DNA from: an uncultured Eubacteriales bacterium | GTDB lineage: Bacteria > Bacillota > Clostridia > RUG12999 | Direction: 5' to 3' | DNA: 64,000 bases | Assembly: GCA_964592375.1 (NCBI GenBank) | Contig: CAZQDP010000005.1 | Location: forward strand, 148 to 64,147 | Shown here: piece by piece, positions 42,657-62,033 of the stretch | How the letters are laid out: each line of letters opens with the position of its first letter | How positions within the stretch are numbered: the stretch's first letter is position 1 | Program-made: the position numbers and the translations under genes | Notes under the pieces: model-generated | Seen by the model: only the letters and a program-made list of their open reading frames with translations | Databases searched by the model: none | Told to the model about the DNA's origin: nothing

Positions 42657-45600
42657 ATGCAAAGGCTGATGCAAATTGCAAGGGAGATGCATATTGAAAA
42701 TAGCGAGGATATCGTGGTGGAGGATTTATTGCTCTACCGCAAAAGCAAACGGATAGAACTTTTTCTAAAGAGCAAAAGAGTGCTAGGAGAAAGCGAAAAT
42801 TCTCATATAAAGGAAGTTTTAAGGCTTCGATACATGATAGAGGACGTAAGGCTTCATGTCAAGTATACCTTCGAACTTACCTCGGATAATATGGGGGACT
42901 ATCTAAATCATCTTGCCCTTCGCATGAAGGAGCATTCCGCCCTATGCGCATTTTTGCTAAGCACCGCCACCGCAGAGATAGAAAAAGATACCATACAAAT
43001 TTTCACGCCGCATGATAGTGCCCATCTTTTGGAGAAGCAGAGCTGTGGCAAAATGATAGAAGCCATTGTTTTTGAAGAGATGGGGAAAAAGGTCGCGGTG
43101 TTCATTGTGGATAATGGTGAGGAAAAGAGCAAATACGAAAATCAAGAAAAGGAAGTGCAACGATTCGCTCCTAAGGAGGCGGCAAAGGTTGACTTTGATG
43201 CGCCTTTACCGAAAAAGCACCCAGCACTGCATATCGATGCAGAGCAGGTGCCTCAAGCAGTGGAGGCGTGGGAAGCAGTGCAGGACGAAGCACCAATGCC
43301 CGCAGAGTCACCAAGCCAGGCTTTGGAAGAGGAAAAAGAAGCTTCCACCCATAAAAAAGTGCTTAAAGGGCGCAAAATTGAAGGAGATTTCACCCCTATT
43401 GTGAAGATTACAGCATCTTCAGGCAAGGTAAATATCTGGGGGGATATTTTCACCAGTGAGGTGCGGGAGCTGAAAAGCGGCCGAAAGCTGATTAGCTTTA
43501 CCTTGACCGATTATACAAGCTCTATCAAGGTGAAATTTTTTACCGGGTCGAAAAATAAGGACAAAAAATCAGAAACTGCAGAAAAGCTTGCCGCAAGCCT
43601 GAAAGCAAATATGCGCGTGGCGGTCAGCGGACGCGCGGAATTTGACGAGTATGAAAAGCAGTTGGTCATCATGTGCAGTGATATTTGTGAGCAGAACGTG
43701 GAAAAAAGAATGGACAATGCACCCGAAAAACGAGTGGAGCTACATATGCATACCCAGATGTCCGCCATGGATGGCATCACGCCGGTAAAAAGCCTCATTG
43801 AGCGTGCGGCCTCTTGGGGACATGCGGCCATCGCCATTACGGATCACGGCGTTGTGCAGGCGTTTCCCGATGCATATGATGCGGCAAAGACGGCTGCAAA
43901 AAAAGGATGCCCCATCAAAATTCTCTATGGGATGGAGGGTTATTTGCGCCGCGCAAGCGTAAACTGTGTGTATCACCCTAGGCCGCGTTGTTTGACGGAA
44001 GAAATCGTTATTTTTGATATTGAAACCACAGGTCTTAGTCCTACTGCGGAAGCCATCATCGAAATTGGCGCTGTAAGGCTTTTGGATGGAGAAATTACGG
44101 ATCGGTTTAACTCCTTTGTCAACCCCAAAAGGCCCATACCATCTTTTATCACCGAGCTGACAGGCATTGATGACAAGATGGTGGCAGAAGCCCCACAGAT
44201 TAAAGAAGTCTTGGAAGATTTTTATGCCTTTGTGGGAGAGGCACCCTTATGCGCGCACAATGCAACCTTTGATACCTCCTTTGTACGCCAGCACGCATCA
44301 CAGGTGGGACTTCCCTTTGACTTTTGTTATATTGATACCTTAGAGATGGCAAGAAGTCTTTTGCCGGAGCTGAAAAATCATAAATTGGGCACGATTGTAA
44401 AGCATTTGGGTATTGAGCTGGTTAATCATCACCGTGCCTCGGATGATGCAGAGGCTACCGCTCATATCTTAAAGCATTTTATTGACACACTGGCAAAGCA
44501 GGAAATTACTTGCATTAGCAGTCTTAATACAGCACTTGCGGGACGAAACGAAAAAAAGGCAGGCACATACCACATTATGCTCCTTGCGAAAAATAAGGAA
44601 GGTCTGCAGAATTTGTATCGTATTGTCAGTGCATCGCATTTGGAGTATTTTTATAAAAAGCCTGTGATACCGATGGAGCTTCTGGAAAAGCATCGGGAGG
44701 GGCTGATTATCGGTTCTGCCTGCGAGAGCGGCGAGTTATATTCCGCACTACTTTGCGGAGCGAGTCAATCGGAAATTGAAAGAATTGCAAAGTTTTATGA
44801 TTATTATGAGGTACAGCCCATAGACAATAATTTATTCCTGGTAAACGAAGGCAGAGTGAAAAACCGTGAAGGGCTCAGGGAAATAAATAAAAAAATTGTC
44901 GCATTAGGAGCAAAGCTACAAAAACCCGTCGTCGCCACCTGCGACGTGCATTTTATGGATAAGGAGGATGAAATGCTACGTCGGATTATTATGGATGCAC
45001 TGAAGTTTTCCGATGTGGACAATCAGCCCCCCTTATATCTGCGCACCACCGAGGAGATGCTGGAGGAATTTTCGTATTTGGGAGAGAAAACGGCTTATGA
45101 GGTGGTGGTGAAAAACACCAACCGATTAGCGGATATGATAGAAGCAGTGCAGCTGTTGCCAAATGAAGCACATCCACCCAAAATGCCGGGTGTGGAAGAG
45201 GAACTCATCAAAATCTCCACCGGCAAGGCAAAAGAAATTTATGGCGAGAATTTGCCGGAAATTGTGAAAGAGCGCATGGACAGAGAGCTTGCCTCCATCA
45301 TCAAACACGGCTTTGCGGTGATGTATATTATTGCACAGAGGCTGGTGGCAAAATCCTTATCCGATGGCTATTTGGTGGGCTCCAGAGGCAGTGTTGGTTC
45401 ATCCTTTGTGGCATTTCTGGCGGGCATTACCGAGGTGAACGCATTAGAACCCCACTATGTTTGTCCCGCTTGCCGACATAGTGAGGTTATTTTGGACGGT
45501 TCGGTGGGCTGTGGTGCGGATATGGAGGATAAGAACTGCCCAAGCTGTGGCACATTGTACTGCAAAGATGGGTATGACATTCCCTTTGAAACCTTTCTGG

Positions 45601-47039
45601 GCTTTGATGGAGACAAGGAACCGGATATTGACCTGAATTTTTCGGGAGATTATCAGCCCATTGCGCATAAATATACAGAAGAGCTCTTTGGCGCAGGATA
45701 TGTATTTCGAGCAGGGACCATCGGCACCATTGCAGAGAAAACAGCCTACGGATTTATTATGAAATATTTTGAGAAAAGAAATAGTAAGCCTCCGGCGGCG
45801 GAGGTGGACCGGTTGGTCAAGGGCTGTACCGGCATCAAGCGAACCACAGGGCAGCATCCTGGTGGCATTATGGTGGTGCCACGAGATGAGGATATTCATT
45901 GGTACTGCCCCGTTCAGCGTCCGGCCGATGATGAGGCGAAGGACATTATCACGACTCATTTTGACTATCATTCCATTTCAGGCAAACTTCTGAAACTGGA
46001 TATTTTGGGTCATGACGATCCGACTGTTATCCGTATGCTACAGGACTTGACAGGGGTGGACCCACAAAGCATTCAAATTGGCGATGCCAGGGTAATGAAC
46101 CTGTTTGCAGATACAAAGGTACTGGGCGTTACACCGGAGCAAATTTTCAGTGAAGTGGGTACCTTTGGCGTTCCTGAATTCGGCACGAGCTTCGTGCGCA
46201 AAATGCTGGTGGATACAAAGCCCACCACCTTCGCAGAGCTTGTGCGCATTTCCGGTCTATCCCACGGGACGGATGTATGGCTGAACAATGCGCAGGATTT
46301 GGTGAAAAGCGGTGTGGCTTCCCTAAGAGAGGTCATATGTACACGTGATGATATTATGACATATCTTATTCATGCAGGTCTTGAAAAGAAGCAGGCGTTT
46401 AAAATCATGGAAAGTGTACGTAAAGGAAAGGGCTTAACAGAAGAAATGGAGCAGGTGATGGTGGAGAATAACGTGCCGGATTGGTATATTTCTTCCTGCA
46501 AAAAAATTAAATACATGTTCCCCAAGGCGCATGCTGTAGCTTATGTAATGATGGCGTTTCGCATTGCGTATTTTAAGCTATATTATCCTAAGGAGTATTA
46601 TACAACATACTTTACCGTGCGAGCAGATGATTTCGACGCCAATATCATGACGGGCACCCGTGAGGAAATCGGGCAGCGGCTTGCAGAGCATTATAAAAAG
46701 GAAGAGATGACCACCAAGGAAAAAAATCAGCTGACCATTCTTGAAATGTGCAATGAAATGTACCTGCGAGGGCTAGCATTTTCACAAATTGACATTTACA
46801 GATCGCATGCAGTAAGGTTTATGCCGGATGAGGAAGGAATTTTGCCACCACTAAGTGCCATGCCCGGTCTTGGCAAATCGGCTGCAGAGAGTATTGTGCA
46901 AGCAAGGGTAGAGAGTGAATTTACCAGCATTGAGGATTTAAAGAAGCGCTCGAAAGTATCCAAGACCGTGGTAGAAATGCTCAAAGAAAAGGGATGCCTT
47001 GCGAGCATACCCGATACGGAGCAGATGACCATGTTTTAA
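42657..47039 (+). CDS. polC: DNA polymerase III PolC-type (Gram-positive replicative polymerase with intrinsic 3'-5' exonuclease)
   Basis: The 1460-aa protein has a PHP domain (VELHMHTQMSAMDG), a DEDD exonuclease (IFDIETTGLS...HRASDDAEAT) and a Zn-finger region (CPACRHS...CPSCG). Confidence 0.9.
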   Translation: MQRLMQIAREMHIENSEDIVVEDLLLYRKSKRIELFLKSKRVLGESENSHIKEVLRLRYMIEDVRLHVKYTFELTSDNMGDYLNHLALRMKEHSALCAFLLSTATAEIEKDTIQIFTPHDSAHLLEKQSCGKMIEAIVFEEMGKKVAVFIVDNGEEKSKYENQEKEVQRFAPKEAAKVDFDAPLPKKHPALHIDAEQVPQAVEAWEAVQDEAPMPAESPSQALEEEKEASTHKKVLKGRKIEGDFTPIVKITASSGKVNIWGDIFTSEVRELKSGRKLISFTLTDYTSSIKVKFFTGSKNKDKKSETAEKLAASLKANMRVAVSGRAEFDEYEKQLVIMCSDICEQNVEKRMDNAPEKRVELHMHTQMSAMDGITPVKSLIERAASWGHAAIAITDHGVVQAFPDAYDAAKTAAKKGCPIKILYGMEGYLRRASVNCVYHPRPRCLTEEIVIFDIETTGLSPTAEAIIEIGAVRLLDGEITDRFNSFVNPKRPIPSFITELTGIDDKMVAEAPQIKEVLEDFYAFVGEAPLCAHNATFDTSFVRQHASQVGLPFDFCYIDTLEMARSLLPELKNHKLGTIVKHLGIELVNHHRASDDAEATAHILKHFIDTLAKQEITCISSLNTALAGRNEKKAGTYHIMLLAKNKEGLQNLYRIVSASHLEYFYKKPVIPMELLEKHREGLIIGSACESGELYSALLCGASQSEIERIAKFYDYYEVQPIDNNLFLVNEGRVKNREGLREINKKIVALGAKLQKPVVATCDVHFMDKEDEMLRRIIMDALKFSDVDNQPPLYLRTTEEMLEEFSYLGEKTAYEVVVKNTNRLADMIEAVQLLPNEAHPPKMPGVEEELIKISTGKAKEIYGENLPEIVKERMDRELASIIKHGFAVMYIIAQRLVAKSLSDGYLVGSRGSVGSSFVAFLAGITEVNALEPHYVCPACRHSEVILDGSVGCGADMEDKNCPSCGTLYCKDGYDIPFETFLGFDGDKEPDIDLNFSGDYQPIAHKYTEELFGAGYVFRAGTIGTIAEKTAYGFIMKYFEKRNSKPPAAEVDRLVKGCTGIKRTTGQHPGGIMVVPRDEDIHWYCPVQRPADDEAKDIITTHFDYHSISGKLLKLDILGHDDPTVIRMLQDLTGVDPQSIQIGDARVMNLFADTKVLGVTPEQIFSEVGTFGVPEFGTSFVRKMLVDTKPTTFAELVRISGLSHGTDVWLNNAQDLVKSGVASLREVICTRDDIMTYLIHAGLEKKQAFKIMESVRKGKGLTEEMEQVMVENNVPDWYISSCKKIKYMFPKAHAVAYVMMAFRIAYFKLYYPKEYYTTYFTVRADDFDANIMTGTREEIGQRLAEHYKKEEMTTKEKNQLTILEMCNEMYLRGLAFSQIDIYRSHAVRFMPDEEGILPPLSAMPGLGKSAAESIVQARVESEFTSIEDLKKRSKVSKTVVEMLKEKGCLASIPDTEQMTMF

Positions 47040-47125: not shown

Positions 47126-48688
47126 CTATTTTTGTTTGAAAAATTTGCGTAAAATGGCACCAGTGGTAAAATAGAGAATGACGGCAAAAGAAATATCAAA
47201 ACTAAGGTTAAAGATAAACAGCTGCTTCCCCATATCCGCTTCCCCATTGCCAAGTGCCGGCAGGGGATACTGCAAAATTCCAATGAGCATAATGAAAAAC
47301 AGTAGCGAGATATATTCCCTTTTTCTTGCATCTTTTTTGATAAATTGCAAGAAAAGCACAATAAAATAGATGAGGTAATACAATACCAGAAATATAAAAG
47401 AGCGAGGCAGGAGCAAGGATTTTATGGTGTTGTGCAGTGTAAAAAAAGAATTGAGCTCTCGCTTATAGGCGGCATCTTCCTTTGTGTAGTTCCCCATCAT
47501 CCCCACCTTATTATCAAAGGCGTTTTGGGCTGTTATCTCCATTTTCTCATACAGGCGCGCCGGGCGAGATAGGTAAAATTTCAGCACGCTCTGCCTGCTT
47601 ATCCTGTCATAAAACAATTCATCAAATGCAGTGCTTTTGGTGTCAATGGGAAGGTCCACATCATATGCATTGGTGCCTGCAAGCACAGCAAGCTCAGGAG
47701 ACAAACCCAAGGCCACTAAATCCTGTGAAGGGGTGGTGGAATTCTTCAGCACACCGTAGAATACGGAATTGTACATGGTGTCTCTCTCTAAATGACCAGG
47801 AGCGCTGGTATAGATACCAATGGTGATTAGCAAAAGAAGAAAATACCCCAATAGCATGGTTACGGTATGCTTGCGGTCTCTGAGCCATACCGGTATAAGG
47901 AAGAGGGCAATGAGAAAGGAAAGCAGGGTGTATTGCATTTTTGAACCAAAGAACATATACGCAAAGATAAAAAGCCAAATCAGGGATCTTCGGCTACCGC
48001 TTTTAATATGGCAAAGTCCAAAAGCTGCCATTGCAAGGAGGGATACATAGGAACAAGCCTCCCCGTAAAAGCTATTAAAATATATGGTCTGCGTACTGTC
48101 TCCCAATCCAAAAAGCGTAAGGATGCAGAGCAGCAGAGTTAAAATGCGGTTTTGACTTTTCAGGCTCAAGATAATTAAATACACGCTGAAAAGAAGCAGT
48201 GCCATATACACCCCTGCCATATAGCGAAGATCAAAAATGCCGCTTTCATGGAAAAGACTGCTCAGGCAAATGCCAATGGTTACAATAATATTCTGGCTGA
48301 CTGCATAAATTTCCTGTACCCGAAAGAAGGGTGCAATAAAATAAAACAGTGTGAGCGATAAAGACTGGAGCACGGGGGGGATTTCAATGGGAAGCCCTTC
48401 ATAGGCCGAATAGGTATATATCGGCACATAATAGTCATAAAAAAGAGGCACATCCGGCTGATGAAACCCATAGGGCACGAGCATTCTTGCAAAATCTCCA
48501 TTGTCTGCCACGCCTCGATATGGCGGCAAAAAAAGCAGTATCACCATGATGATTAGCATAATGGCAGGTGTAAGCACCTGAGGAGAAAGCAAGGCGTTTA
48601 TACATTGCTTTGCACTGAGACTTTTCAAAAATATATTACATCGATTAAAAAATGATTTCAACACGATTTTCCTCCGTATCCCACACAA
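47126..48688 (-). CDS. Uncharacterised polytopic membrane protein (~12 TM, 520 aa), co-transcribed downstream of dnaE
   Basis: The protein is strongly hydrophobic with multiple TM segments. No recognisable catalytic motif was seen by eye. It lies 3 bp downstream of dnaE on the same strand. Confidence 0.4.
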   Translation of the reverse strand: MCGIRRKIVLKSFFNRCNIFLKSLSAKQCINALLSPQVLTPAIMLIIMVILLFLPPYRGVADNGDFARMLVPYGFHQPDVPLFYDYYVPIYTYSAYEGLPIEIPPVLQSLSLTLFYFIAPFFRVQEIYAVSQNIIVTIGICLSSLFHESGIFDLRYMAGVYMALLLFSVYLIILSLKSQNRILTLLLCILTLFGLGDSTQTIYFNSFYGEACSYVSLLAMAAFGLCHIKSGSRRSLIWLFIFAYMFFGSKMQYTLLSFLIALFLIPVWLRDRKHTVTMLLGYFLLLLITIGIYTSAPGHLERDTMYNSVFYGVLKNSTTPSQDLVALGLSPELAVLAGTNAYDVDLPIDTKSTAFDELFYDRISRQSVLKFYLSRPARLYEKMEITAQNAFDNKVGMMGNYTKEDAAYKRELNSFFTLHNTIKSLLLPRSFIFLVLYYLIYFIVLFLQFIKKDARKREYISLLFFIMLIGILQYPLPALGNGEADMGKQLFIFNLSFDISFAVILYFTTGAILRKFFKQK

Positions 48689-51600: not shown

Positions 51601-52170
51601 CAGTTTGATATTTACCCTGCGTTGCTCCTCAATGCCGTGATCCTGCAACTCAATAAAAAAATTATCCTTGCCGAAAATATCGAGGTAACGTAGTGCATAT
51701 TTTTCTGCCAATGCATCATCATTTTCTAAAAAACTGCGGCAAATATCTCCTGCCAGGCAAGCAGACAGTGCAATAATTCCCTCATGATGGGCAAGCAAAA
51801 GCTCCATATCCACACGAGGTTTGTAATAAAACCCTTCCGTATAACCAGCAGATACAATTTTAAGCAAATTAAAATAGCCCACATTGTTCATGGCAAGGAG
51901 CACAAGATGACCCGGCTCTGCATCCTGGCGACCGTCCATGTCAAAGCGGCTGCGCCGAGCGGTATATACCTCACAGCCTAAAATTGGCTTAAGGCCTGCA
52001 CTTTTGACTTTATTATAAAAATCAATGACACCAAACATGCAGCCATGGTCTGTAATGGCGATGCTGTCCATTCCCAGTTCCTTGGCACGTGCGGCCAATT
52101 TACCAATTTTACAAGCACCATCTAGCAAGCTGTATTCACTGTGGTTATGAAGATGAACAAATGGCGTCAT
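48691..52170 (-). CDS. dnaE: DNA polymerase III alpha subunit DnaE
   Basis: The PHP N-terminus is MTPFVHLHNHSEYSLLDGA...ITDHG. The protein is 1159 aa. The GS region reads DFLGLRNLTV. Confidence 0.9.
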   Translation of the reverse strand: MTPFVHLHNHSEYSLLDGACKIGKLAARAKELGMDSIAITDHGCMFGVIDFYNKVKSAGLKPILGCEVYTARRSRFDMDGRQDAEPGHLVLLAMNNVGYFNLLKIVSAGYTEGFYYKPRVDMELLLAHHEGIIALSACLAGDICRSFLENDDALAEKYALRYLDIFGKDNFFIELQDHGIEEQRRVNIKLIDLSHRLGIGLVVTNDVHYIHQKDAKVQDALLCIQTGKTVDMEKRMRFDTNEFYLKSGDEMAALFPALPEAARNTVDIAARCNVALSFDELHLPRYQLPEGVTDAAAYMRSLCLEGLSERYGKHSESLKPRLFYELETIENMGYVDYFLIVWDFIKYAKDSGIIVGPGRGSAAGSLVSYCLRITDIDPMKYNLLFERFLNPERISMPDIDIDFCIERRQEVIDYVVEKYGKANVAQIITFGTMGAKQAVRDCARVLSLPYAEADRIAKLIPNELKITIARALEISSELKAIYDNDAQMKEMLDIAMALEGTPRHASTHAAGVVICEKPVTDYVPLSRNGDVITTQFDMDTLQNLGLLKMDFLGLRNLTVLRDTLRIILESTGEKVSLEDIDQQDAGVFDMLSQGNTDGVFQLESRGMKQFMKELMPRSIEDLIAGISLYRPGPMDQIPYYIRGKHRPDSITYKHPLLEPILSVTYGCMVYQEQVMQIVRDLAGYSMGRADLVRRAMSKKKATVMEEERAHFVHGMVDEQGNVLLEGAIRRGIDERCANAIFDEMMDFANYAFNKSHAAAYAIVAYQTAYFKYHYPTQYMAALLSSVLGVSGKVSTYVAECSRMGIKLLPPDIGCSHEGFTVDGNCIRFGLAAIKNIGYNLVTSIIEKRKDTPIQSFGDFLLRMQGSDNNKRAVESLIKCGAFDSLGEKRSHLLAIYEDEMDEIANVRRKNVEGQMSLFGEEEAAVLRPLNNRKEFDTPTLLAMEKEMLGIYVSGHPLDEYADLISQYVTLTTGDIVQYFEDVSQSAPVHDKDFVSMAGIVTAKKDKLTKSSSTMAFVQIEDLSGSIEVVVFPKVLQKFAPCLQVDMHVLIRGRIDLKEDGDSKLIAEEVVLLEDIRNAGPVVPPSPPTEKTLYLRFKIGKDFLLPQVKQALLQSPGSTPVVFYREEFCDRMKWDACVDYTAQTEQMLQTLLGIENVKMK

Positions 52171-53597: not shown

Positions 53598-53877
53598 TCA
53601 CGCTTGCATTGCACAATAAAAGAAGCCCCGATCACCTTTAAAACGGGAGAAGTGGTTTTATGAAGTTTTCTCAATATCATGCAAGACATTTTGAATGGAT
53701 GCCTCATTTATAACATTTACGTATATTATATTATATTATCTTAAAAATATAAATAGTATTTTGAAAATTTTGATATATTTCACAAAAAATAAGTGTATTT
53801 CTATGAAAATCCACTGCACATTCGCAGTTGCTGTGCAACAAGTACAGATATTCATCAGACGATTTGAGATACTGCAA

Positions 53878-53946: not shown

Positions 53947-56481
53947 CTATGATACGATAGATACCTTAGCGATAGAGCTTATCTTCCCTTTCATGACAAG
54001 ATCAATAAAAATTTCTGCAAGTTTAGGGTCAAACTGCGTTCCTGCATTTTTCTTCAGCTCTAAAACAGCAAACTCAAAGGGCATTGGCTTTTTGTATTGC
54101 CTCTCAGAGGTCATGGCATCAAAAGCATCCGCAATGGCAAGGCATCTGCCACCAATTGGAATATCCTCGCCTTTGATCCCTCGTGGATAGCCTCGGCCAT
54201 CCCAACGCTCGTGATGGCTGATGGCAATGGGGATTAAGTAGTTCAGTGCAGGAAGATGCTTAATAATTTCCACTGAATTTTCTACATGTTTCTTCATTTC
54301 AAAATATTCATCGTCATCCAGTTTTCCTTGCTTGGTCAAAATGTGCTCGGATATGCCAATCTTCCCGATATCATGTAGCAGAGCGGCTTCTTTAATAATT
54401 TTGACATGCTCCGCATCAAGACCGAGTTCTTTGCCAAGGGCAATGGCATATTCCGCCACACGCTGGGAATGACCAAAGGTGACGTGGTCCTTCACATCAA
54501 TGGCGGCAGTCAACGCATGGATAGTGGTTGCATATTCCGCATATTTATCATTTGAGCTAAGAGATTTTTGGTCGATTTCTTTTTCATACACCTTGCCCGA
54601 TGCATAGGTTACAATCTTATTTTTACCGGAAAACTTTGCATTGTACACAGCAAGCTCCACATTTTGTAAAAGCTGAGCAATGGATGAGGCCGTATAGGGA
54701 TAGGTTGCAATGCCTGCACTTAAGGTAAGGGTTTTAAGCTTAGAGGTTGGCTTAAACGCCAGCTGGCTTTTGATTTTTTCCGCGAAGTAGAGCGCCTTGA
54801 TGGAATCATACCCCGGCAAAATAACGGCAAACACCTTGCCACTGTAGCGTACAGCCTTGCCGCACTCACCCAAGGTAGATTTGATAATATTTGCAATCTC
54901 TTTTAGCGCAATATCGCCTTCGGAGTATCCATAAAGCTGATTGTATAGCTTAAAATCGTCAACATTTAAAAATAGAAGGGATAATACATCATTTTTAGAT
55001 TTCTCCATAAAGGTATCAAGCTGCTCATGAAAGAATTTCCGATTAAGCAGGCCTGTTAGGTCGTCTGTTCTGGCGTCATTGTATACCTTTTCATACAGAT
55101 GAGCGTTTTTAATAGCAATGGAGGTAATGGAACCGACCGACTCTAAAAAGTTGATATTTTCCGAAGATAAACAGATTTTACTGGGCTTGCCGCATATTAC
55201 CACAATGCCATACAAACAATCCTCTACCTTCAGTGGGGCAAGACACAAGGCGTTAATTCTTGCAAGCTCACTTTTCTCATGTTCCCACATGGCCTTATAG
55301 TGCACGGATTTTGAAAACTCGCTCAGAAGAAGACAATTCGATGCATTCTCATCCACCGCACCCTTTAGCAATGCCAAAACGCATGGATTATCTTCCCGGA
55401 GGGTAAAATCACGTCTGGCCAGTGGACTGCATGTTGCGACTGTTATATAAGATGCTCGCTTCTCATCCTTTAAGCAAATATAAATTTTATCGATATTGAT
55501 GGTGGTTTTGATAATGGAAATCAGGGCGGCGGAAATTTCATCAATATTAAGCGTTTTTGATATTGTTGCGCTATAATTTTTAATATTATTGTCTCTGTCT
55601 TTTCTTGTACGGAACTGCTTGACATTTAACTTTTTAACCAAAAAGTACGCAAAGGCAACTGATACAAGAAACAGAAGATTAACGACAAATAAATGGTTTT
55701 GTGTAAACATGGGTGTTGCATTTTTGATAAATGCATCAATATCATTTACAAAGTAAAAGAAAATCACGGAGGTAAAGATAGCGGCGGTAAAGCCAATGGT
55801 ATTGCTGGAAACCAACAATTGAAGTGAAAATAAACGTTTTTTATACAACGATATGAGCAGTGCCACGGCATAGAAAATGCCGGACAATGTATCAAATGGA
55901 AATACATTTCCCGGAATAACAGAAAGAAGATTACCCGCAAATAAAATATACATCCCGATGGCAACAAAGATAAGCCCCGAAGACATCGCGGAATTCTTTT
56001 TCAAAGACGTATTGACCATGTAGGAGGCACGTAGTACAATCAGTGCAAAGAAAGTGGTGGGAATGAGTACATGCCATGTGGTATTGTATAAAAAAACCAC
56101 TCGGTTCGGTTCGATATAAGTGAGTGTAGGTACAGCTAAAAATACTTCAAAATGCGTAAAGAATAGCAATATGATGGTTCCCGTCCAGAAAAACAAGCGC
56201 AGGAATTTATTTTTAAGACCGGTATAGGTGCTAATAAAATCATACATCAATACGGGTGCGGAAAAAATCGACAAAAGCGAAATCTCATACCACAGCCGAT
56301 ATCCGGGGTACAACAACAAGCGCATAAAAAGTGAACCGGCAGTCCACCCGATAAACGCAACTAAAAGCATCATAAACGAGCGTAAAAGCTCATTCTTTTT
56401 GGCAATAAGTATACAGCAAAGTAAGAAACCATAGCAGCATAAAGCAATCAATTGTACATAAATGAAAGGTATGGCTGCCAT
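53947..56481 (-). CDS. Polytopic membrane signalling protein: ~9 TM N-domain, then GAF, degenerate GGDEF and HD-GYP c-di-GMP phosphodiesterase domains
   Basis: The GGDEF-domain fold is present (DDLTGLLNRKFF...), but the signature reads RYSGKVF in place of RYGGEEF. The HD-GYP motifs are intact: HDIGK...HHERWDGRGYP. Confidence 0.7.
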   Translation of the reverse strand: MAAIPFIYVQLIALCCYGFLLCCILIAKKNELLRSFMMLLVAFIGWTAGSLFMRLLLYPGYRLWYEISLLSIFSAPVLMYDFISTYTGLKNKFLRLFFWTGTIILLFFTHFEVFLAVPTLTYIEPNRVVFLYNTTWHVLIPTTFFALIVLRASYMVNTSLKKNSAMSSGLIFVAIGMYILFAGNLLSVIPGNVFPFDTLSGIFYAVALLISLYKKRLFSLQLLVSSNTIGFTAAIFTSVIFFYFVNDIDAFIKNATPMFTQNHLFVVNLLFLVSVAFAYFLVKKLNVKQFRTRKDRDNNIKNYSATISKTLNIDEISAALISIIKTTINIDKIYICLKDEKRASYITVATCSPLARRDFTLREDNPCVLALLKGAVDENASNCLLLSEFSKSVHYKAMWEHEKSELARINALCLAPLKVEDCLYGIVVICGKPSKICLSSENINFLESVGSITSIAIKNAHLYEKVYNDARTDDLTGLLNRKFFHEQLDTFMEKSKNDVLSLLFLNVDDFKLYNQLYGYSEGDIALKEIANIIKSTLGECGKAVRYSGKVFAVILPGYDSIKALYFAEKIKSQLAFKPTSKLKTLTLSAGIATYPYTASSIAQLLQNVELAVYNAKFSGKNKIVTYASGKVYEKEIDQKSLSSNDKYAEYATTIHALTAAIDVKDHVTFGHSQRVAEYAIALGKELGLDAEHVKIIKEAALLHDIGKIGISEHILTKQGKLDDDEYFEMKKHVENSVEIIKHLPALNYLIPIAISHHERWDGRGYPRGIKGEDIPIGGRCLAIADAFDAMTSERQYKKPMPFEFAVLELKKNAGTQFDPKLAEIFIDLVMKGKISSIAKVSIVS

Positions 56482-58106
56482 TAAACCTTCACCTCCCGGG
56501 GGAAGAACTCATGCTGAGCAATCTTTTGTATTTCCGTAAGTACATAGGAGGGTGCATTCATTCGTGGGACGGCTTCGCCTGTTCTCTTTTGATATTCCTC
56601 TAAGGCACCACATTTTAAAATGGTAATTTTAAGCGGCTCAATTCCGAGCAGTTTTTTTAGATCTTTACAATCATTGTCGAAATATTTAAAATAAACACTG
56701 AGGTGATCTGTAAGCACCGAGGAACTGACGGCGGTTGTTTCCAGACTTTCCTCAAAATATTCAACATACAAATTTAAATATGGACGATTATTTAAAAATT
56801 CTTTTCTCGCAAACCAGTTTTTCAGTGTTAAACCCGAAACACGAATGGCCTCTGAAATGGTATTTTCCGTAATTCTGGTAAAGCCTGCAATATCAATCAC
56901 AGTGGGCACTCTGTCTACATATGTCAAGTGTGGCAGGGCTACACCGTCTGCCATGCTCACATTGGCTGTGCAACAGTACACATCACCAACTCGATAACGC
57001 ACAAAGGCACCGCCTTTTAATACTGAAATGACAATTTCATAGTTTTTGTTTACAGTCAGCTCGCTGAGCAAATAAGTGGTCGGTTTAAAGGAAGGATTTG
57101 CAATGTTTTTTAGCATATCCTCTTCAGGAATGAACTCATAAAAACAAGCATCGGGGAATAAAATAATGCCATTTTTTGCCCAAGTTTCCGTTCCGATACA
57201 GGTAGGCTCCGTTCCGGCTGCAATTTCCGATGGGCGAATTCCCCAATATTCCTCTAAAAAGTCTTTATACACGGCAGTGTCTGTGCCTGCGCAAATAAGG
57301 GATTTTAATTTGAAGATATCTTTGGGTTTTAAAGGCGTTTTTTTGATTTTGCTTTTAATTGTAGCACCAAGTAACCTAAAAAACATAAAGGGTGAAAGCT
57401 TAAGCAGTGATTTGATACCCGAGCCTGTGCTCGAGCTTTGTGTGCAAAAGCTTTCCGTAATATAGGTAATCACACTGCTCAACCCTGCAAACATATCAAT
57501 GCCATGCTGAAGACCAAGCTTAAACCCGGCTCTGTTGCGCTCGCCAAAAGACATTTTGGCACCATCTTCCAAGGAAGGCAGATACTGATAATTAAATTCT
57601 TCATTGAGTAGCAAAGGGAATAGGCCTGTAGCAAAAGGCAAGGGAGCAAAACCATAGAGCATTTTGTCTCCTGGTCTTAAAAAGAACTCGCCCCGAGCTG
57701 TGCTTGTGGACAGCATGGCCACCGCCAACACATTATTTTTATAAACATCAAGCATATTTCTTGTATATGGTGCAAGCTTGATAGGGTGCTTTCCACCCTC
57801 CCAAGTGGTTTCAATCCAAATAACAGGCTCTGCCGGTAGCATATCCTTGTCCTTCGACAAAAGAACATCGGCATAATCCGAAAAGGTGGTGAGGGGAACC
57901 ATTTCACGGAACTCCTTCACACTACGAGGCGTTTTTCCGTTTAAAATCTTCTGTCCAAGACCACTTTTCGACCAAAGCGCAAGTTGCTCTTCCATCAGCC
58001 GAAATTGAATTTGCATATATTCATCAATCGTTAAATCCAAAAAACCACAATATTCATCCCAAAGGGCCTCATATTGTCTCTTTTTTAGCTTGTCCACAAA
58101 TTTCAT
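56481..58106 (-). CDS. GH3-family protein (bacterial homolog of plant acyl-acid amido synthetases)
   Basis: The protein is 541 aa. Its N-terminal pattern (...SVKEFREMVPLTTFSDYADVL...EPVIWIETTWEGGKHPIKLAPYT...) aligns by eye with the bacterial GH3 pattern (YEDFK..VPI.TYEDIKPYV...SSGTT..KFIP). A stop/start TAATG overlap links it to the HD-GYP gene. Confidence 0.5.
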   Translation of the reverse strand: MKFVDKLKKRQYEALWDEYCGFLDLTIDEYMQIQFRLMEEQLALWSKSGLGQKILNGKTPRSVKEFREMVPLTTFSDYADVLLSKDKDMLPAEPVIWIETTWEGGKHPIKLAPYTRNMLDVYKNNVLAVAMLSTSTARGEFFLRPGDKMLYGFAPLPFATGLFPLLLNEEFNYQYLPSLEDGAKMSFGERNRAGFKLGLQHGIDMFAGLSSVITYITESFCTQSSSTGSGIKSLLKLSPFMFFRLLGATIKSKIKKTPLKPKDIFKLKSLICAGTDTAVYKDFLEEYWGIRPSEIAAGTEPTCIGTETWAKNGIILFPDACFYEFIPEEDMLKNIANPSFKPTTYLLSELTVNKNYEIVISVLKGGAFVRYRVGDVYCCTANVSMADGVALPHLTYVDRVPTVIDIAGFTRITENTISEAIRVSGLTLKNWFARKEFLNNRPYLNLYVEYFEESLETTAVSSSVLTDHLSVYFKYFDNDCKDLKKLLGIEPLKITILKCGALEEYQKRTGEAVPRMNAPSYVLTEIQKIAQHEFFPREVKV

Positions 58107-58690
58107 TTTATTATCTCCATTACTACTTTGTTTTTCTGCAAATTGGTGATAAAGCCTTTAAAAGTCGCTCTGCTTGGAAACATAAATGGTGTTGCAAGTC
58201 TATATGCTGGGTATCCTTCAAATATTTTGGGGAATATATAATAATCCTGAAATAGACTATATAGGATATTGCAACCCCCAAAAACGATAAACGCCAACAA
58301 AACAAAATCAATACCGGTAAATGCCCATAAGCTCAAATAAAAAAGCATAAAGCAAGGGAGCGCGGGATGACGGCATAGTCCATATGCACCCTTCGTGCAT
58401 AAAGCAAATTGCTCAGCCTCACAGTAGGTTTTTTTAAATGGAATGGCAAAAAACAACGAATAAACAGTGAGCCCCAAGAAAAGAACTGCCATGAGAAGAA
58501 CAACTACTTTTCCAAGCAAGGGAAGGGCAAAGTGACTATCGTAAAACAAAATGCCAACTGTCGCAACGACAACCAAGATAAATCCCATCAAAAACTGCAA
58601 CGATAGAAATTTGTTTTTTATAAAAACCTGGTTTATGTCATACACAAAAAACAGCATAAAGCCTATAAGACCTAACCAAATAAACGGCAT
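58103..58690 (-). CDS. Membrane methyltransferase-like protein (ICMT/PEMT-like isoprenylcysteine carboxyl methyltransferase family)
   Basis: The ~195-aa protein has 4-5 TM segments. RHPALPCFMLFYLSLWAF resembles the ICMT RHPxY motif. The C-terminal region reads FEGYPAYRLATPF. The start is taken at the internal Met, which has AAAGGA 8 nt upstream. An ATGA overlap links it to the GH3 gene. Confidence 0.4.
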   Translation of the reverse strand: MPFIWLGLIGFMLFFVYDINQVFIKNKFLSLQFLMGFILVVVATVGILFYDSHFALPLLGKVVVLLMAVLFLGLTVYSLFFAIPFKKTYCEAEQFALCTKGAYGLCRHPALPCFMLFYLSLWAFTGIDFVLLAFIVFGGCNILYSLFQDYYIFPKIFEGYPAYRLATPFMFPSRATFKGFITNLQKNKVVMEIIK

Positions 58691-58805
58691 AACAAATATC
58701 CTTTCGCTTGATTGTATTTTTTGATGATGTATTCCAAAGGCTAGTGCGAGGCAAATCATTGGGAGGTTTCACCTTGAAAAACCGGCGCATAGAGATGCCA
58801 AAGTT

Positions 58806-58842
58806 TATTATATAATATTATTTTTTAAAATACAATACAAAT
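58806..58842 (-). promoter_or_regulatory. Putative promoter for the methyltransferase-GH3-HD-GYP operon
   Basis: On the minus strand, TTGTAT - 17 bp - TATTAT(ATAAT) lies in an AT-rich divergent region. Confidence 0.25.
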
Positions 58843-59011
58843 TTCTACTAAAATATACAAAATAATTTTATGCATATTGCTATAAAAAACAGTAAAAATA
58901 CACATAAACACACGCGTTTTCGGGATGTAATCGCAATGGAATAGAATATAAACAATAGACATACCCCAAAAAAATAGGCCAATGACAGCATATTTTTATG
59001 AATTGTGAATG

Positions 59012-59040
59012 TTGACATATTTTGAAAAAAGAGATAAAAT
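59012..59040 (+). promoter_or_regulatory. Sigma-A-type promoter for typA
   Basis: TTGACA - 17 bp - TAAAAT lies ~85 nt upstream of ATG 59127. Confidence 0.45.
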
Positions 59041-59126
59041 AATATATATTGCCTCATTTGCAGCTCAAAATGCATCCGAGCAACGATTGAAAAGTGGTAA
59101 CTTGAAAGGAATGAAGGTTAATTATA

Positions 59127-61091: not shown

Positions 61092-62033
61092 ATGGAAGAG
61101 AGAAAAACAAAGTATGGCATAATAAGAGGCATCATCACCTTTGAGAATTATGCAAGTGGGGCTCTGAAAGAGTGCATGTTAAATGCCAAAAGCAGTATTC
61201 GCCTGCCCTGTGCAAACTTGGTTCCGTCCTACGAAAGAGAAGAAGCAAGAAAAAAACACATCCCCTCGCTCACCTTCTATGAATCAGGCAATCTGAGCAA
61301 TATTGCATTGCAAAAGCAAACAGAGATTAGCACGCCCATCGGAAAAATCCCGGCAGAGTTTATTACTTTTTATGAGAGCGGAAAGATAAAACGCGTCTTT
61401 CCTCAAAACGGGAAATTGTCCGGTTACTGGTCTGAAAAGAATGAATATGACCTAGCGCCAATTATTCGTTTAAAACTGCCTTGTGGACAAATTAATACGA
61501 AAATCATCGGCATTCTGTTCTATGAAAGTGGAGCGGTGAAAAGCGTTACACTTTGGCCTGCAGACTTTATCATGGTACATACGCCCTGTGGAGAGTTGCC
61601 ACTTCGCATTGGCATTGCATTTTATGAAAGCGGTGCCATCCGATCGGTTGAACCACGCAGGTCTGTCATTGTTGGCACTCCAATAGGGGAGCTGAGTGCA
61701 TTCGATACAGAGGCAATTGGTATTCATGCAGATATCAATTCGTTAGCATTTGATGAAGAAGGTGGTATAGCATCGCTCACGACATCGGTAAACACAGTTA
61801 CTGTGAGAGCGGATTGCGGCAAGGAAGTGGTATACCACCCAGGCACAGTAATGAGTCATTTTGCTGAGGATATGATGAGTATAACACCCTTGAAAATATC
61901 GTTCACCAAGGAGACAGTTTGTTTCAACAATAGTGCGGCGGATACATATCCCATTACTGGACACGAGTTTTTTATTGGAAAGTTCGATATCAATAAAGAG
62001 AAAATGTGCAATGAGTGCGAAAAGTGCTCATAA
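61092..62033 (+). CDS. Repeat protein with ~6 copies of an FYESG-containing ~23-aa unit (MORN-variant/YwqK-like repeats) and a Cys-rich C-terminus
   Basis: Repeats are TFYESGNLSNI, TFYESGKIKRVFP, ILFYESGAVKSVT and AFYESGAIRSVEP, each preceded by TP.G.lP. The C-terminus reads CNECEKCS. Confidence 0.45.
   Translation: MEERKTKYGIIRGIITFENYASGALKECMLNAKSSIRLPCANLVPSYEREEARKKHIPSLTFYESGNLSNIALQKQTEISTPIGKIPAEFITFYESGKIKRVFPQNGKLSGYWSEKNEYDLAPIIRLKLPCGQINTKIIGILFYESGAVKSVTLWPADFIMVHTPCGELPLRIGIAFYESGAIRSVEPRRSVIVGTPIGELSAFDTEAIGIHADINSLAFDEEGGIASLTTSVNTVTVRADCGKEVVYHPGTVMSHFAEDMMSITPLKISFTKETVCFNNSAADTYPITGHEFFIGKFDINKEKMCNECEKCS

Follow-up and report, generated by a model that had tools for sequence, protein, structure and literature searches.

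The stretch of DNA analysed here (the window: 64,000 nucleotides, positions 148 to 64,147 of the forward strand of contig CAZQDP010000005.1 from NCBI GenBank assembly GCA_964592375.1) comes from an uncultured Eubacteriales bacterium placed by GTDB in the Clostridia (RUG12999). Its minus strand carries three consecutive genes, named here A, B and C, that code for a polytopic membrane protein with the features of a putative S-adenosylmethionine (SAM)-dependent methyltransferase, for a cytosolic enzyme of the GH3 type, and for a membrane receptor with a predicted cyclic di-guanosine monophosphate (c-di-GMP) phosphodiesterase output (Table 1). The trio is a genuine, self-contained operon that moves as a unit. 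On the comparative evidence set out below it looks like a signal-enzyme/receptor cassette feeding c-di-GMP or two-component signalling, that is, an undescribed chemical-signalling module. Its parts all come from families already known; it is their combination, a GH3 enzyme, a membrane methyltransferase-like protein and a seven-transmembrane (7TM)-GAF receptor with c-di-GMP phosphodiesterase output, that is without description in the searchable literature. No published account of the trio, or of a GH3 gene together with HD-GYP, ICMT or histidine kinase genes, was found in a search whose coverage excludes subscription journals. HisKA_7TM, the domain found at the input end of the receptor, appears in the searchable literature in domain censuses only, and a preprint census of HD-GYP proteins makes no mention of this architecture or of its neighbours (bioRxiv 10.1101/2021.11.05.467447).

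Conservation of the A-B-C trio

The three genes are chained by overlapping start and stop codons, exactly as the first-pass annotation of this DNA, made from the sequence alone, had described them. At the A/B junction the ATG of B overlaps the TGA of A (ATGA at 58106-58103, in the context ...AAA ATG A...), and at the B/C junction the ATG of C overlaps the TAA of B (TAATG at 56483-56479, in the context ...GTT TAA TG G...). Shine-Dalgarno-like sequences precede both internal starts: GGAGA, within gene A, lies 5′ of the start of B and GGGAGGTGA, within gene B, lies 5′ of the start of C.

Relatives of B were found in at least 523 species-level genomes in a scan of one genome per species, all of them Clostridia or related Bacillota. 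The best 80 of these 523, together with two loci of the closest relative, make up the 82 loci in which the trio was examined. The best 80 cover Lachnospiraceae, Oscillospiraceae, Peptococcaceae, Anaerovoracaceae, Acetobacterium and others, with Coprococcus, Blautia, Anaerostipes, Fusicatenibacter and Hungatella among the gut carriers. Wherever the contig is long enough, A, B and C stand in identical order and on the same strand (82/82). Spacing is tight throughout: A overlaps B in 40 of 81 loci and lies within 30 nucleotides of it in 34 more, and B overlaps C in 45 of 69 loci, with a further 19 within 30 nucleotides. In the closest relative (83% identity) the trio has other genomic surroundings, and no conserved neighbour besides the trio was found in the 82 loci, the next commonest cluster being generic ABC ATPases (18 loci). 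A search begun independently from A-family proteins arrived again at the trio, in a Desulfotomaculum metagenome-assembled genome and in an abundant gut contig. The proposal of the first-pass annotation that the three genes form a conserved neighbourhood is therefore borne out by the whole set of loci and by these two A-seeded ones. Mirror-tree correlations (r 0.70-0.84) show co-inheritance and no more.

It is scarcely credible that three unrelated genes merely share a transcript by chance. Order and strand are kept in all 82 loci and in several families while the flanks are not conserved, proteins in which A is fused to B exist, and the association with HisKA_7TM extends to 62 of 62 distant relatives of B.

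The wider GH3 clade and its sensor partner

An exhaustive profile search with B gave 1165 representative proteins. Four distant GH3 representatives were sampled and in all four the next gene downstream codes for a HisKA_7TM protein, although the outputs differ: a kinase followed by a REC-GAF-HD-GYP protein for P0334 (loci L088/L089), HisKA_7TM-GAF-PAS kinases for P0268 and P0288, and a HisKA_7TM-GAF kinase for P0321. A metagenome scan with the distant GH3 enzymes provided 80 loci, in which downstream proteins of at least 250 amino acids were counted (n=62). HisKA_7TM was present in every one of the 62. Approximately 31 of them are histidine kinases and 15 are HisKA_7TM-GAF-HD-GYP proteins without GGDEF, the rest being cut by contig ends. 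About 16 kinase-type loci (e.g., L119:2617-3168) also encode a response regulator, composed of an HTH_17 (excisionase-type) and a receiver domain, 15-18 nucleotides 5′ of the GH3 gene; the operon order is therefore regulator, GH3, kinase. By this comparison, the constant partner of the GH3 clade is the 7TM-GAF input module and the output is interchangeable, as a ligand-and-receptor relation predicts. BLASTP of the window 7TM region against the L088 kinase was not significant (E 3.6), the shared Pfam family being the sole link between these two. In locus L088 the REC-GAF-HD-GYP protein (L088:6933-8498) has its HD dyad replaced (LRNLG) with HHE..DG.GFP kept, and motifs 1 and 2 of its GH3 enzyme are divergent; judging from these residues, the lineage may be non-catalytic.

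Protein A appears to be a second, Clostridia-centred partner of B that can be fused to it. Three representatives are A-B fusions (P0243, P0245 and P0259), as confirmed with a hidden Markov model (HMM) of the A family. P0259, a PEMT-like/GH3 protein of 744 amino acids with canonical RHPGVYG and TSGKTGE, occurs on three contigs, including L085:6001-9710 and L086:153-3862. Some database entries of the GH3 and A families (P0021, P0242, P0128) have internal tandem duplications that are either assembly artefacts or real, and these longer GH3 matches were rejected as fusions on account of the duplications. At L166:1152-1880 an unrelated class-I SAM methyltransferase (Methyltransf_11/UbiE-like) is found 18 nucleotides 5′ of a distant GH3 gene, in the slot of A. 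It may represent, in this single case, a non-orthologous displacement of A. Taken with the clade-wide HisKA_7TM-GAF adjacency and three lineages in which the operon is preceded by a riboswitch (see below), the A-B fusions make the functional link to the sensor stronger than had been proposed from the window alone.

A rival explanation is a sensing and detoxification cassette. In such a cassette the 7TM-GAF module would detect an exogenous or fermentation carboxylic acid (aromatic, fatty or bile-acid-like), B, with A where it occurs, would inactivate it by conjugation and methylation, and co-location would reflect the shared substrate. The two-component variants do encode a DNA-binding regulator in the operon, which is typical of sense-and-respond detoxification cassettes. 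To judge from their database records, the carriers inhabit guts, digesters and sediments, where such acids abound. Among structures, PaaK-type phenylacetate ligases come second only to plant GH3s as matches to B, and conjugation by GH3 enzymes of plants serves to inactivate or activate hormones (PMC12493201). However, the HD-GYP versions lack a transcriptional output that might switch on the enzyme, the enzyme genes are translated together with that of the sensor and are not under its control, and neither a transporter nor further catabolic genes are conserved alongside in the 82 loci. We consider this explanation quite improbable.

Protein B is a GH3-type enzyme

HMM matches, motifs and predicted fold agree that protein B is a cytosolic GH3-type enzyme. 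Membership was assessed with Pfam families PF03321, PF23571 and PF23572 (ANL superfamily). The window protein scores 45.4 bits against GH3_M (cut-off 23.6) and 19.7 bits, under the cut-off, against the GH3 N-terminal domain; many of its homologues carry precomputed matches to PF03321 and PF23572. A profile of 25 B homologues searched against all PDB sequences retrieved plant GH3 enzymes only (best 4b2g, 4.8e-8). The AlphaFold2 model of B (predicted template modelling score 0.81) gave AtGH3.15, GH3.6, GH3.5, VvGH3-1, PBS3 and JAR1 as top PDB matches in Foldseek (E 4e-19 to 1e-16; template modelling score 0.5-0.64), followed by PaaK-type ligases, the sequence identity to the plant structures being 13-19%. 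The earlier assignment of B to GH3, and to no other ANL family, is thus upheld.

The nucleotide motifs TTWEGG(K/R)xPxK, AGTEP and YRVGD are kept across the 82 B sequences. YRVGD is an exact motif 3 and AGTEP fits motif 2 (Y/A-G-x-T/S-E), while TTWEGG(K/R)xPxK is a variant of motif 1 found in the Clostridial clade, for which distant clade members have the canonical TSGRxGExK. The N-terminal signature W..YCGFLDL is specific to this bacterial GH3 clade. Conservation of the three adenylation motifs argues that B is a working enzyme. GH3-type enzymes adenylate a carboxylic acid with ATP and then form an amide between it and an amine, usually an amino acid.

The plant enzymes (JAR1/GH3.11, GH3.5, GH3.6, PBS3/GH3.12 and VvGH3-1) share with B the two-domain fold and the YRVGD motif and are its best PDB matches. 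They differ in motif 1, which reads (S/T)SGT(S/T)xG..K in plants and TTWEGGKxPxK in B, and the partner genes of B code for bacterial membrane proteins. In plants the conjugate jasmonoyl-isoleucine is itself the receptor ligand, a precedent for a signal made by a GH3 enzyme. Bacterial GH3 proteins had been described in the first-pass annotation as essentially uncharacterised. This no longer holds: OlsH, characterised in 2025 as a GH3-like synthase of N-acyl-ornithine, uses free fatty acid, ATP and ornithine without coenzyme A or acyl carrier protein (PMC12493201). OlsH is the closest characterised relative of B, the closest structures being those of the plant GH3s. In a BLAST census most OlsH homologues fell within Bacteroidota, Pseudomonadota and Planctomycetota, Bacillota not being singled out (PMC12493201). 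The OlsH-OlsG-OlsI system of Singulisphaera acidiphila resembles the trio in that a bacterial GH3-like adenylating enzyme shares an operon with a methyltransferase (OlsG there and the putative methyltransferase A here). In contrast to that system, B is not an OlsH orthologue, the trio is without an OlsI-type alpha/beta-hydrolase (82 loci) and its partner is a signalling protein.

The motifs bear on a further explanation, in which B makes no free ligand and serves the sensor as an accessory enzyme or co-sensor. It would either modify the sensor covalently (adenylation or amidation of a carboxylate, in the manner of adaptation) or relay to it by contact that ATP and a cytosolic carboxylic acid have been bound, with A as anchor or partner. 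B strictly adjoins the HisKA_7TM sensor across differing outputs, often with overlapping genes, and the two-component versions place it between response regulator and kinase. In the L088 enzyme motifs 1 and 2 appear degenerate and its partner HD-GYP has no HD dyad, which points to a non-catalytic role in some lineages. Strong conservation of all three adenylation motifs is, however, seen across the Clostridial clade and also in the distant-clade consensus, A-B fusions with no sensor nearby imply a role of B independent of the receptor, and literature searches gave no precedent for protein modification by GH3 enzymes. We regard the co-sensor as an unlikely explanation.

Protein A, a probable remote ICMT/PEMT relative

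Family-level matches and a structural model make protein A a probable remote relative within the ICMT/PEMT/steroid-reductase superfamily; it is a putative SAM-dependent methyltransferase of the membrane. The first-pass annotation had called it ICMT/PEMT-like from its motifs. This stands as a remote relationship of the family and of the predicted structure, but it does not extend to a PF04140 or PF04191 match of the window protein, which gave zero matches in Pfam and NCBIfam even at E<=10 and lies below every curated cut-off (PF04140, PF04191, NF040696). Weak, sub-threshold matches were obtained among 50 members of the A family to PEMT (31/50, best 2e-5), isopcys_mtase of NCBIfam (23/50), ICMT (15/50) and LmtA (8/50). 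Among PDB sequences the A-family profile matches Ma-ICMT best, with the alignment covering the diagnostic motif block at the C-terminus. By length and root-mean-square deviation, the model of A (mean predicted local distance difference test score 85.7) fits best to sterol reductase, SRD5A and two ICMT structures.

A resembles ICMT/Ste14, PEMT and LmtA in size, in its polytopic helical build and in the C-terminal block G.Y...RHP ... (acidic pair) ..F..Y..Y...P. The RHPxY-hydrophobic-EE element is the C-terminal cofactor region of Ste14p. In the A family R107 and H108 are invariant, P109 is nearly so, and F..Y..Y...PF.P is kept downstream; unlike in the characterised enzymes, the Y of RHPxY is replaced and EE has become a near-invariant QD. 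The more distant A-B fusion P0259 carries RHPGVYG. The characterised methyltransferases of the ICMT/PEMT superfamily act on lipids or on lipid-like, hydrophobic substrates.

A superfamily acting on lipids and hydrophobic substrates, with PEMT, ICMT and LmtA as the nearest weak matches of A, brings into view bulk remodelling of membrane lipids. B and A would then make and methylate an amino-acid lipid (compare OlsH/OlsG and trimethyl-ornithine lipid) and C, whose input domain is intramembrane, would be a sensor of the envelope or lipid state that adjusts c-di-GMP rather than the receptor of a dedicated signal. The product of OlsH, the sole characterised bacterial GH3, is the first intermediate on the way to a membrane lipid, and OlsG, a methyltransferase, is encoded in the operon of OlsH (PMC12493201). 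We give this possibility little credence. B reaches 17 bits against an OlsH cut-off of 620, no OlsI-like O-acyltransferase or other conserved neighbour accompanies the trio in the 82 loci, and enzymes of bulk lipids are not usually tied one-to-one to a signalling protein whose outputs are interchangeable.

Protein C is a predicted c-di-GMP phosphodiesterase with a 7TM-GAF input

The sequence of protein C is that expected of a one-component membrane receptor in which HisKA_7TM and GAF domains form the input, a dead GGDEF domain follows, and an HD-GYP c-di-GMP phosphodiesterase is the output. Its earlier description as a protein with about nine transmembrane helices, a GAF domain, a degenerate GGDEF and an intact HD-GYP holds, with GGDEF, HD_5 and HD matched and GAF_3 just below threshold (24.8 bits, cut-off 27); homologues consistently match GAF families. 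PF16927 (HisKA_7TM) matches residues 1-300 searched alone with 30.8 bits (cut-off 28.6), a match not returned by the scan of full-length C. It is found in 22 of 24 C homologues (best 1.8e-16) and among the precomputed matches of orthologues. Conserved intramembrane residues are W46, G49, S50, M53, R54, P172, G176, G183, P195, D197 and G201.

The GGDEF domain fold is present (110 bits). The signature is SGKVF in the window protein and (S/G)GKEF in nearly all of 70 aligned sequences; the first metal-binding Asp (D327 equivalent) is N or S in 68 of the 70, the equivalents of the guanine-binding N335 and D344 are the same in all 70, and no RxxD I-site is seen in this alignment. By these residues the domain is non-catalytic and no cyclase, and it probably binds a nucleotide and may have a regulatory role. 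The HD_5 match (129.6 bits) includes the HD-GYP motifs LLHDIGKI and HHERWDGRGYPR, and LLHD(I/V)GKI and HHER(W/Y)DGxGYPR are kept in the aligned homologues. C is thus plausibly a regulated phosphodiesterase. Caulobacter PdeA (CC3396) is a GTP-activated phosphodiesterase with a degenerate GGDEF and an EAL output. C shares with it a dead GGDEF with guanine-binding residues placed directly upstream of the c-di-GMP phosphodiesterase domain, but its output is HD-GYP and not EAL, and simpler HisKA_7TM-GAF-HD-GYP relatives are without the dead GGDEF.

Gene C is split in Coprococcus comes MSK.16.63, where an in-frame TAA replaces a Tyr codon just before the GGDEF region (L082:8994-8996). This nonsense mutation suggests inactivation of the sensor at the strain level. 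The gene is also in two pieces in L048 and L070.

c-di-GMP-I riboswitches upstream of some operons

An Rfam scan of all 82 trio loci detected the c-di-GMP-I aptamer (RF01051) directly 5′ of gene A in Parasporobacterium paucivorans and in two other carriers (Table 1), each time followed by a hairpin and a U-run that form a terminator. The B proteins of the three are pairwise 58-67% identical and the riboswitch carriers are therefore not one close clade. Aptamer and terminator hairpin coexist in the minimum-energy fold, and the predicted folding hints at an OFF switch.

Proposed function of the trio

We favour a ligand-synthase and receptor pair, in which the product of B (with A) is read by the 7TM-GAF sensor C and sets c-di-GMP hydrolysis; the sequence comparisons leave it, in our estimate, slightly short of an even chance. 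B would make a hydrophobic amide, for instance an N-acyl or aryl-acyl amino acid, amide formation being inferred with the help of the OlsH precedent (PMC12493201). In Clostridia, methylation of this amide by A would follow at the membrane. C, through its 7TM/GAF input, would read the product, or the balance between substrate and product, and would switch the hydrolysis of c-di-GMP by HD-GYP, with GTP on the dead GGDEF as a possible modulator. In the few lineages where the operon itself is preceded by a c-di-GMP-I riboswitch, this would create a closed feedback loop.

Several observations weigh against the ligand-and-receptor pair. Adjacency does not discriminate between a product that is the ligand, an enzyme that modifies or docks on the sensor, and a sensor that detects the substrate of the enzyme. 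B is distant from the one bacterial GH3 of demonstrated activity (17.2 bits against NF052613, the NCBIfam equivalog model of the lyso-ornithine-lipid synthetase OlsH, cut-off 620). No A-like gene was found in the histidine-kinase and plain HD-GYP variants, so the B-sensor link does not depend on A. The fusion gene of P0259 is followed, with a 4-nucleotide overlap, by a gene for a B12-binding radical-SAM protein, the sensor slot being otherwise filled, an arrangement that may represent the A-B pair in a biosynthetic form, and the P0245 fusion has no conserved partner or sensor adjoining it. The c-di-GMP-I riboswitch was found in just 3 of the 82 loci and is not detected in the window at E<=1.

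A bolder extension of the ligand-synthase and receptor pair, possible but doubtful in our view, is that this bacterial GH3 clade serves HisKA_7TM-GAF receptors as the dedicated synthase of their signal. The trio would then make a methylated messenger of the lipo-amino-acid type (compare N-acyl amino acid methyl esters) that is read in the membrane and leads to c-di-GMP degradation.

In its logic the system is closest to Rpf/DSF (diffusible signal factor) signalling of Xanthomonas, which comprises the synthase RpfF, the fatty acyl-CoA ligase RpfB, the sensor kinase RpfC and the HD-GYP regulator RpfG. Both associate enzymes of a lipid-like signal (a proposed one in the trio), among them an adenylating enzyme of the ANL superfamily, with a membrane sensor that has an HD-GYP output, and the L088 arrangement (GH3, 7TM kinase, REC-GAF-HD-GYP) is a two-component version of the present system. 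The conserved module, however, contains neither a crotonase-type RpfF nor the RpfC/RpfG phosphorelay, and a single polypeptide of the window combines sensor and HD-GYP. The input is HisKA_7TM-GAF and not that of RpfC, and the adenylating enzyme is of the GH3 and not of the FadD type. Membership in the Rpf family was rejected since none of its defining proteins is present; the analogy is one of logic only. The RpfG family is mentioned in the HD-GYP census (bioRxiv 10.1101/2021.11.05.467447).

Gene boundaries and genomic surroundings

The open reading frame (ORF) calls, all on the minus strand, were 58103..58759 for A (218 amino acids), 56481..58106 for B (541 amino acids) and 53947..56481 for C (844 amino acids). 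The true start of gene A is most likely M24, at 58690, because homologues and the database copy P0121 (195 amino acids) begin there and the Shine-Dalgarno-like sequence AAAGGA is found 7-12 nucleotides 5′ of this ATG. The segment 58760-58860 had been proposed as the promoter region of the operon. It is AT-rich, as described (GC ~0.32 upstream of gene A), but in a consensus scan it contained no good match to sigma-70, the nearest match, which is the sole one on the minus strand, being at 59068-59041. No shared promoter or operator motif was detected in the 250 nucleotides 5′ of A in 77 loci, where A/T runs and words resembling ribosome binding sites were the only common elements. No Rfam family matched the operon of the window at E<=1.

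Table 1. Features of the operon and riboswitch aptamers of related loci (window positions unless a locus is named).
Feature	Position	Strand	Description or evidence
Gene A	58103..58690	(-)	195 aa polytopic membrane protein; ORF reaches 58759
Gene B	56481..58106	(-)	541 aa; predicted GH3-type (ANL superfamily) ATP-dependent acyl-acid amido synthetase
Gene C, whole	53947..56481	(-)	844 aa
C residues 1-290, membrane sensor region	55612..56481	(-)	~9 transmembrane helices = HisKA_7TM + two helices; HMM + hydropathy
C residues 312-459, GAF	55105..55548	(-)	GAF_3 24.8 bits; GAF families in homologues
C residues 471-622, conserved-degenerate GGDEF	54616..55071	(-)	GGDEF 1.1e-31
C residues 660-821, HD-GYP	54019..54504	(-)	Intact motifs; HD_5 1.3e-37, HD 5e-22
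5′ region of operon	58691..59126	(-)	AT-rich intergenic stretch, gene A to divergent typA/bipA
Weak terminator-like hairpin	53813..53828	(-)	Candidate operon end, 3′ of C; consensus scan only
c-di-GMP-I aptamer (Parasporobacterium paucivorans)	L018:5265-5349	Strand of gene A	60.6 bits
c-di-GMP-I aptamer	L030:4710-4791	Strand of gene A	68.3 bits
c-di-GMP-I aptamer	L010:5236-5319	Strand of gene A	68.2 bits

The neighbours of the operon in the window are housekeeping genes, DnaE and a MurC-type ligase downstream and the divergent TypA/BipA upstream. Just downstream of the operon, on the same strand, the stop codon of the MurC-type ligase gene overlaps the dnaE start by 4 nucleotides (52167-52170). 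Two ORFs upstream of dnaE are without Pfam match, one of 1460 amino acids at 42657-47039 (+) and one of 520 amino acids at 47126-48688 (-). A protein of 313 amino acids encoded at 61092-62033 (+) contains repeats of the motif F(Y)ESG(x)(I/L) and matches MORN_2 below threshold (24 bits). A role in anti-phage defence was rejected, as the PADLOC output consisted of generic HD-domain noise only.

Significance of the GH3-sensor association

We know of no ligand described at present for HisKA_7TM, a widespread orphan sensor domain, and the comparative pattern reported here is the first concrete lead to what it senses. It suggests a function beyond ornithine-lipid synthesis for a large and little-studied clade of bacterial GH3 proteins. 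To our knowledge HD-GYP proteins are the main c-di-GMP hydrolases of Clostridia and their inputs are mostly not known; the trio gives a testable input for this signalling. Reporter-based ligand discovery is feasible because the enzyme-sensor pair also exists with a histidine-kinase output. If GH3 enzymes of this clade are indeed signal synthases for HisKA_7TM-GAF receptors, chemical signalling of a new class would be at work in Gram-positive anaerobes, among them commensals of the human gut, and would parallel hormone conjugation by the GH3 enzymes of plants.

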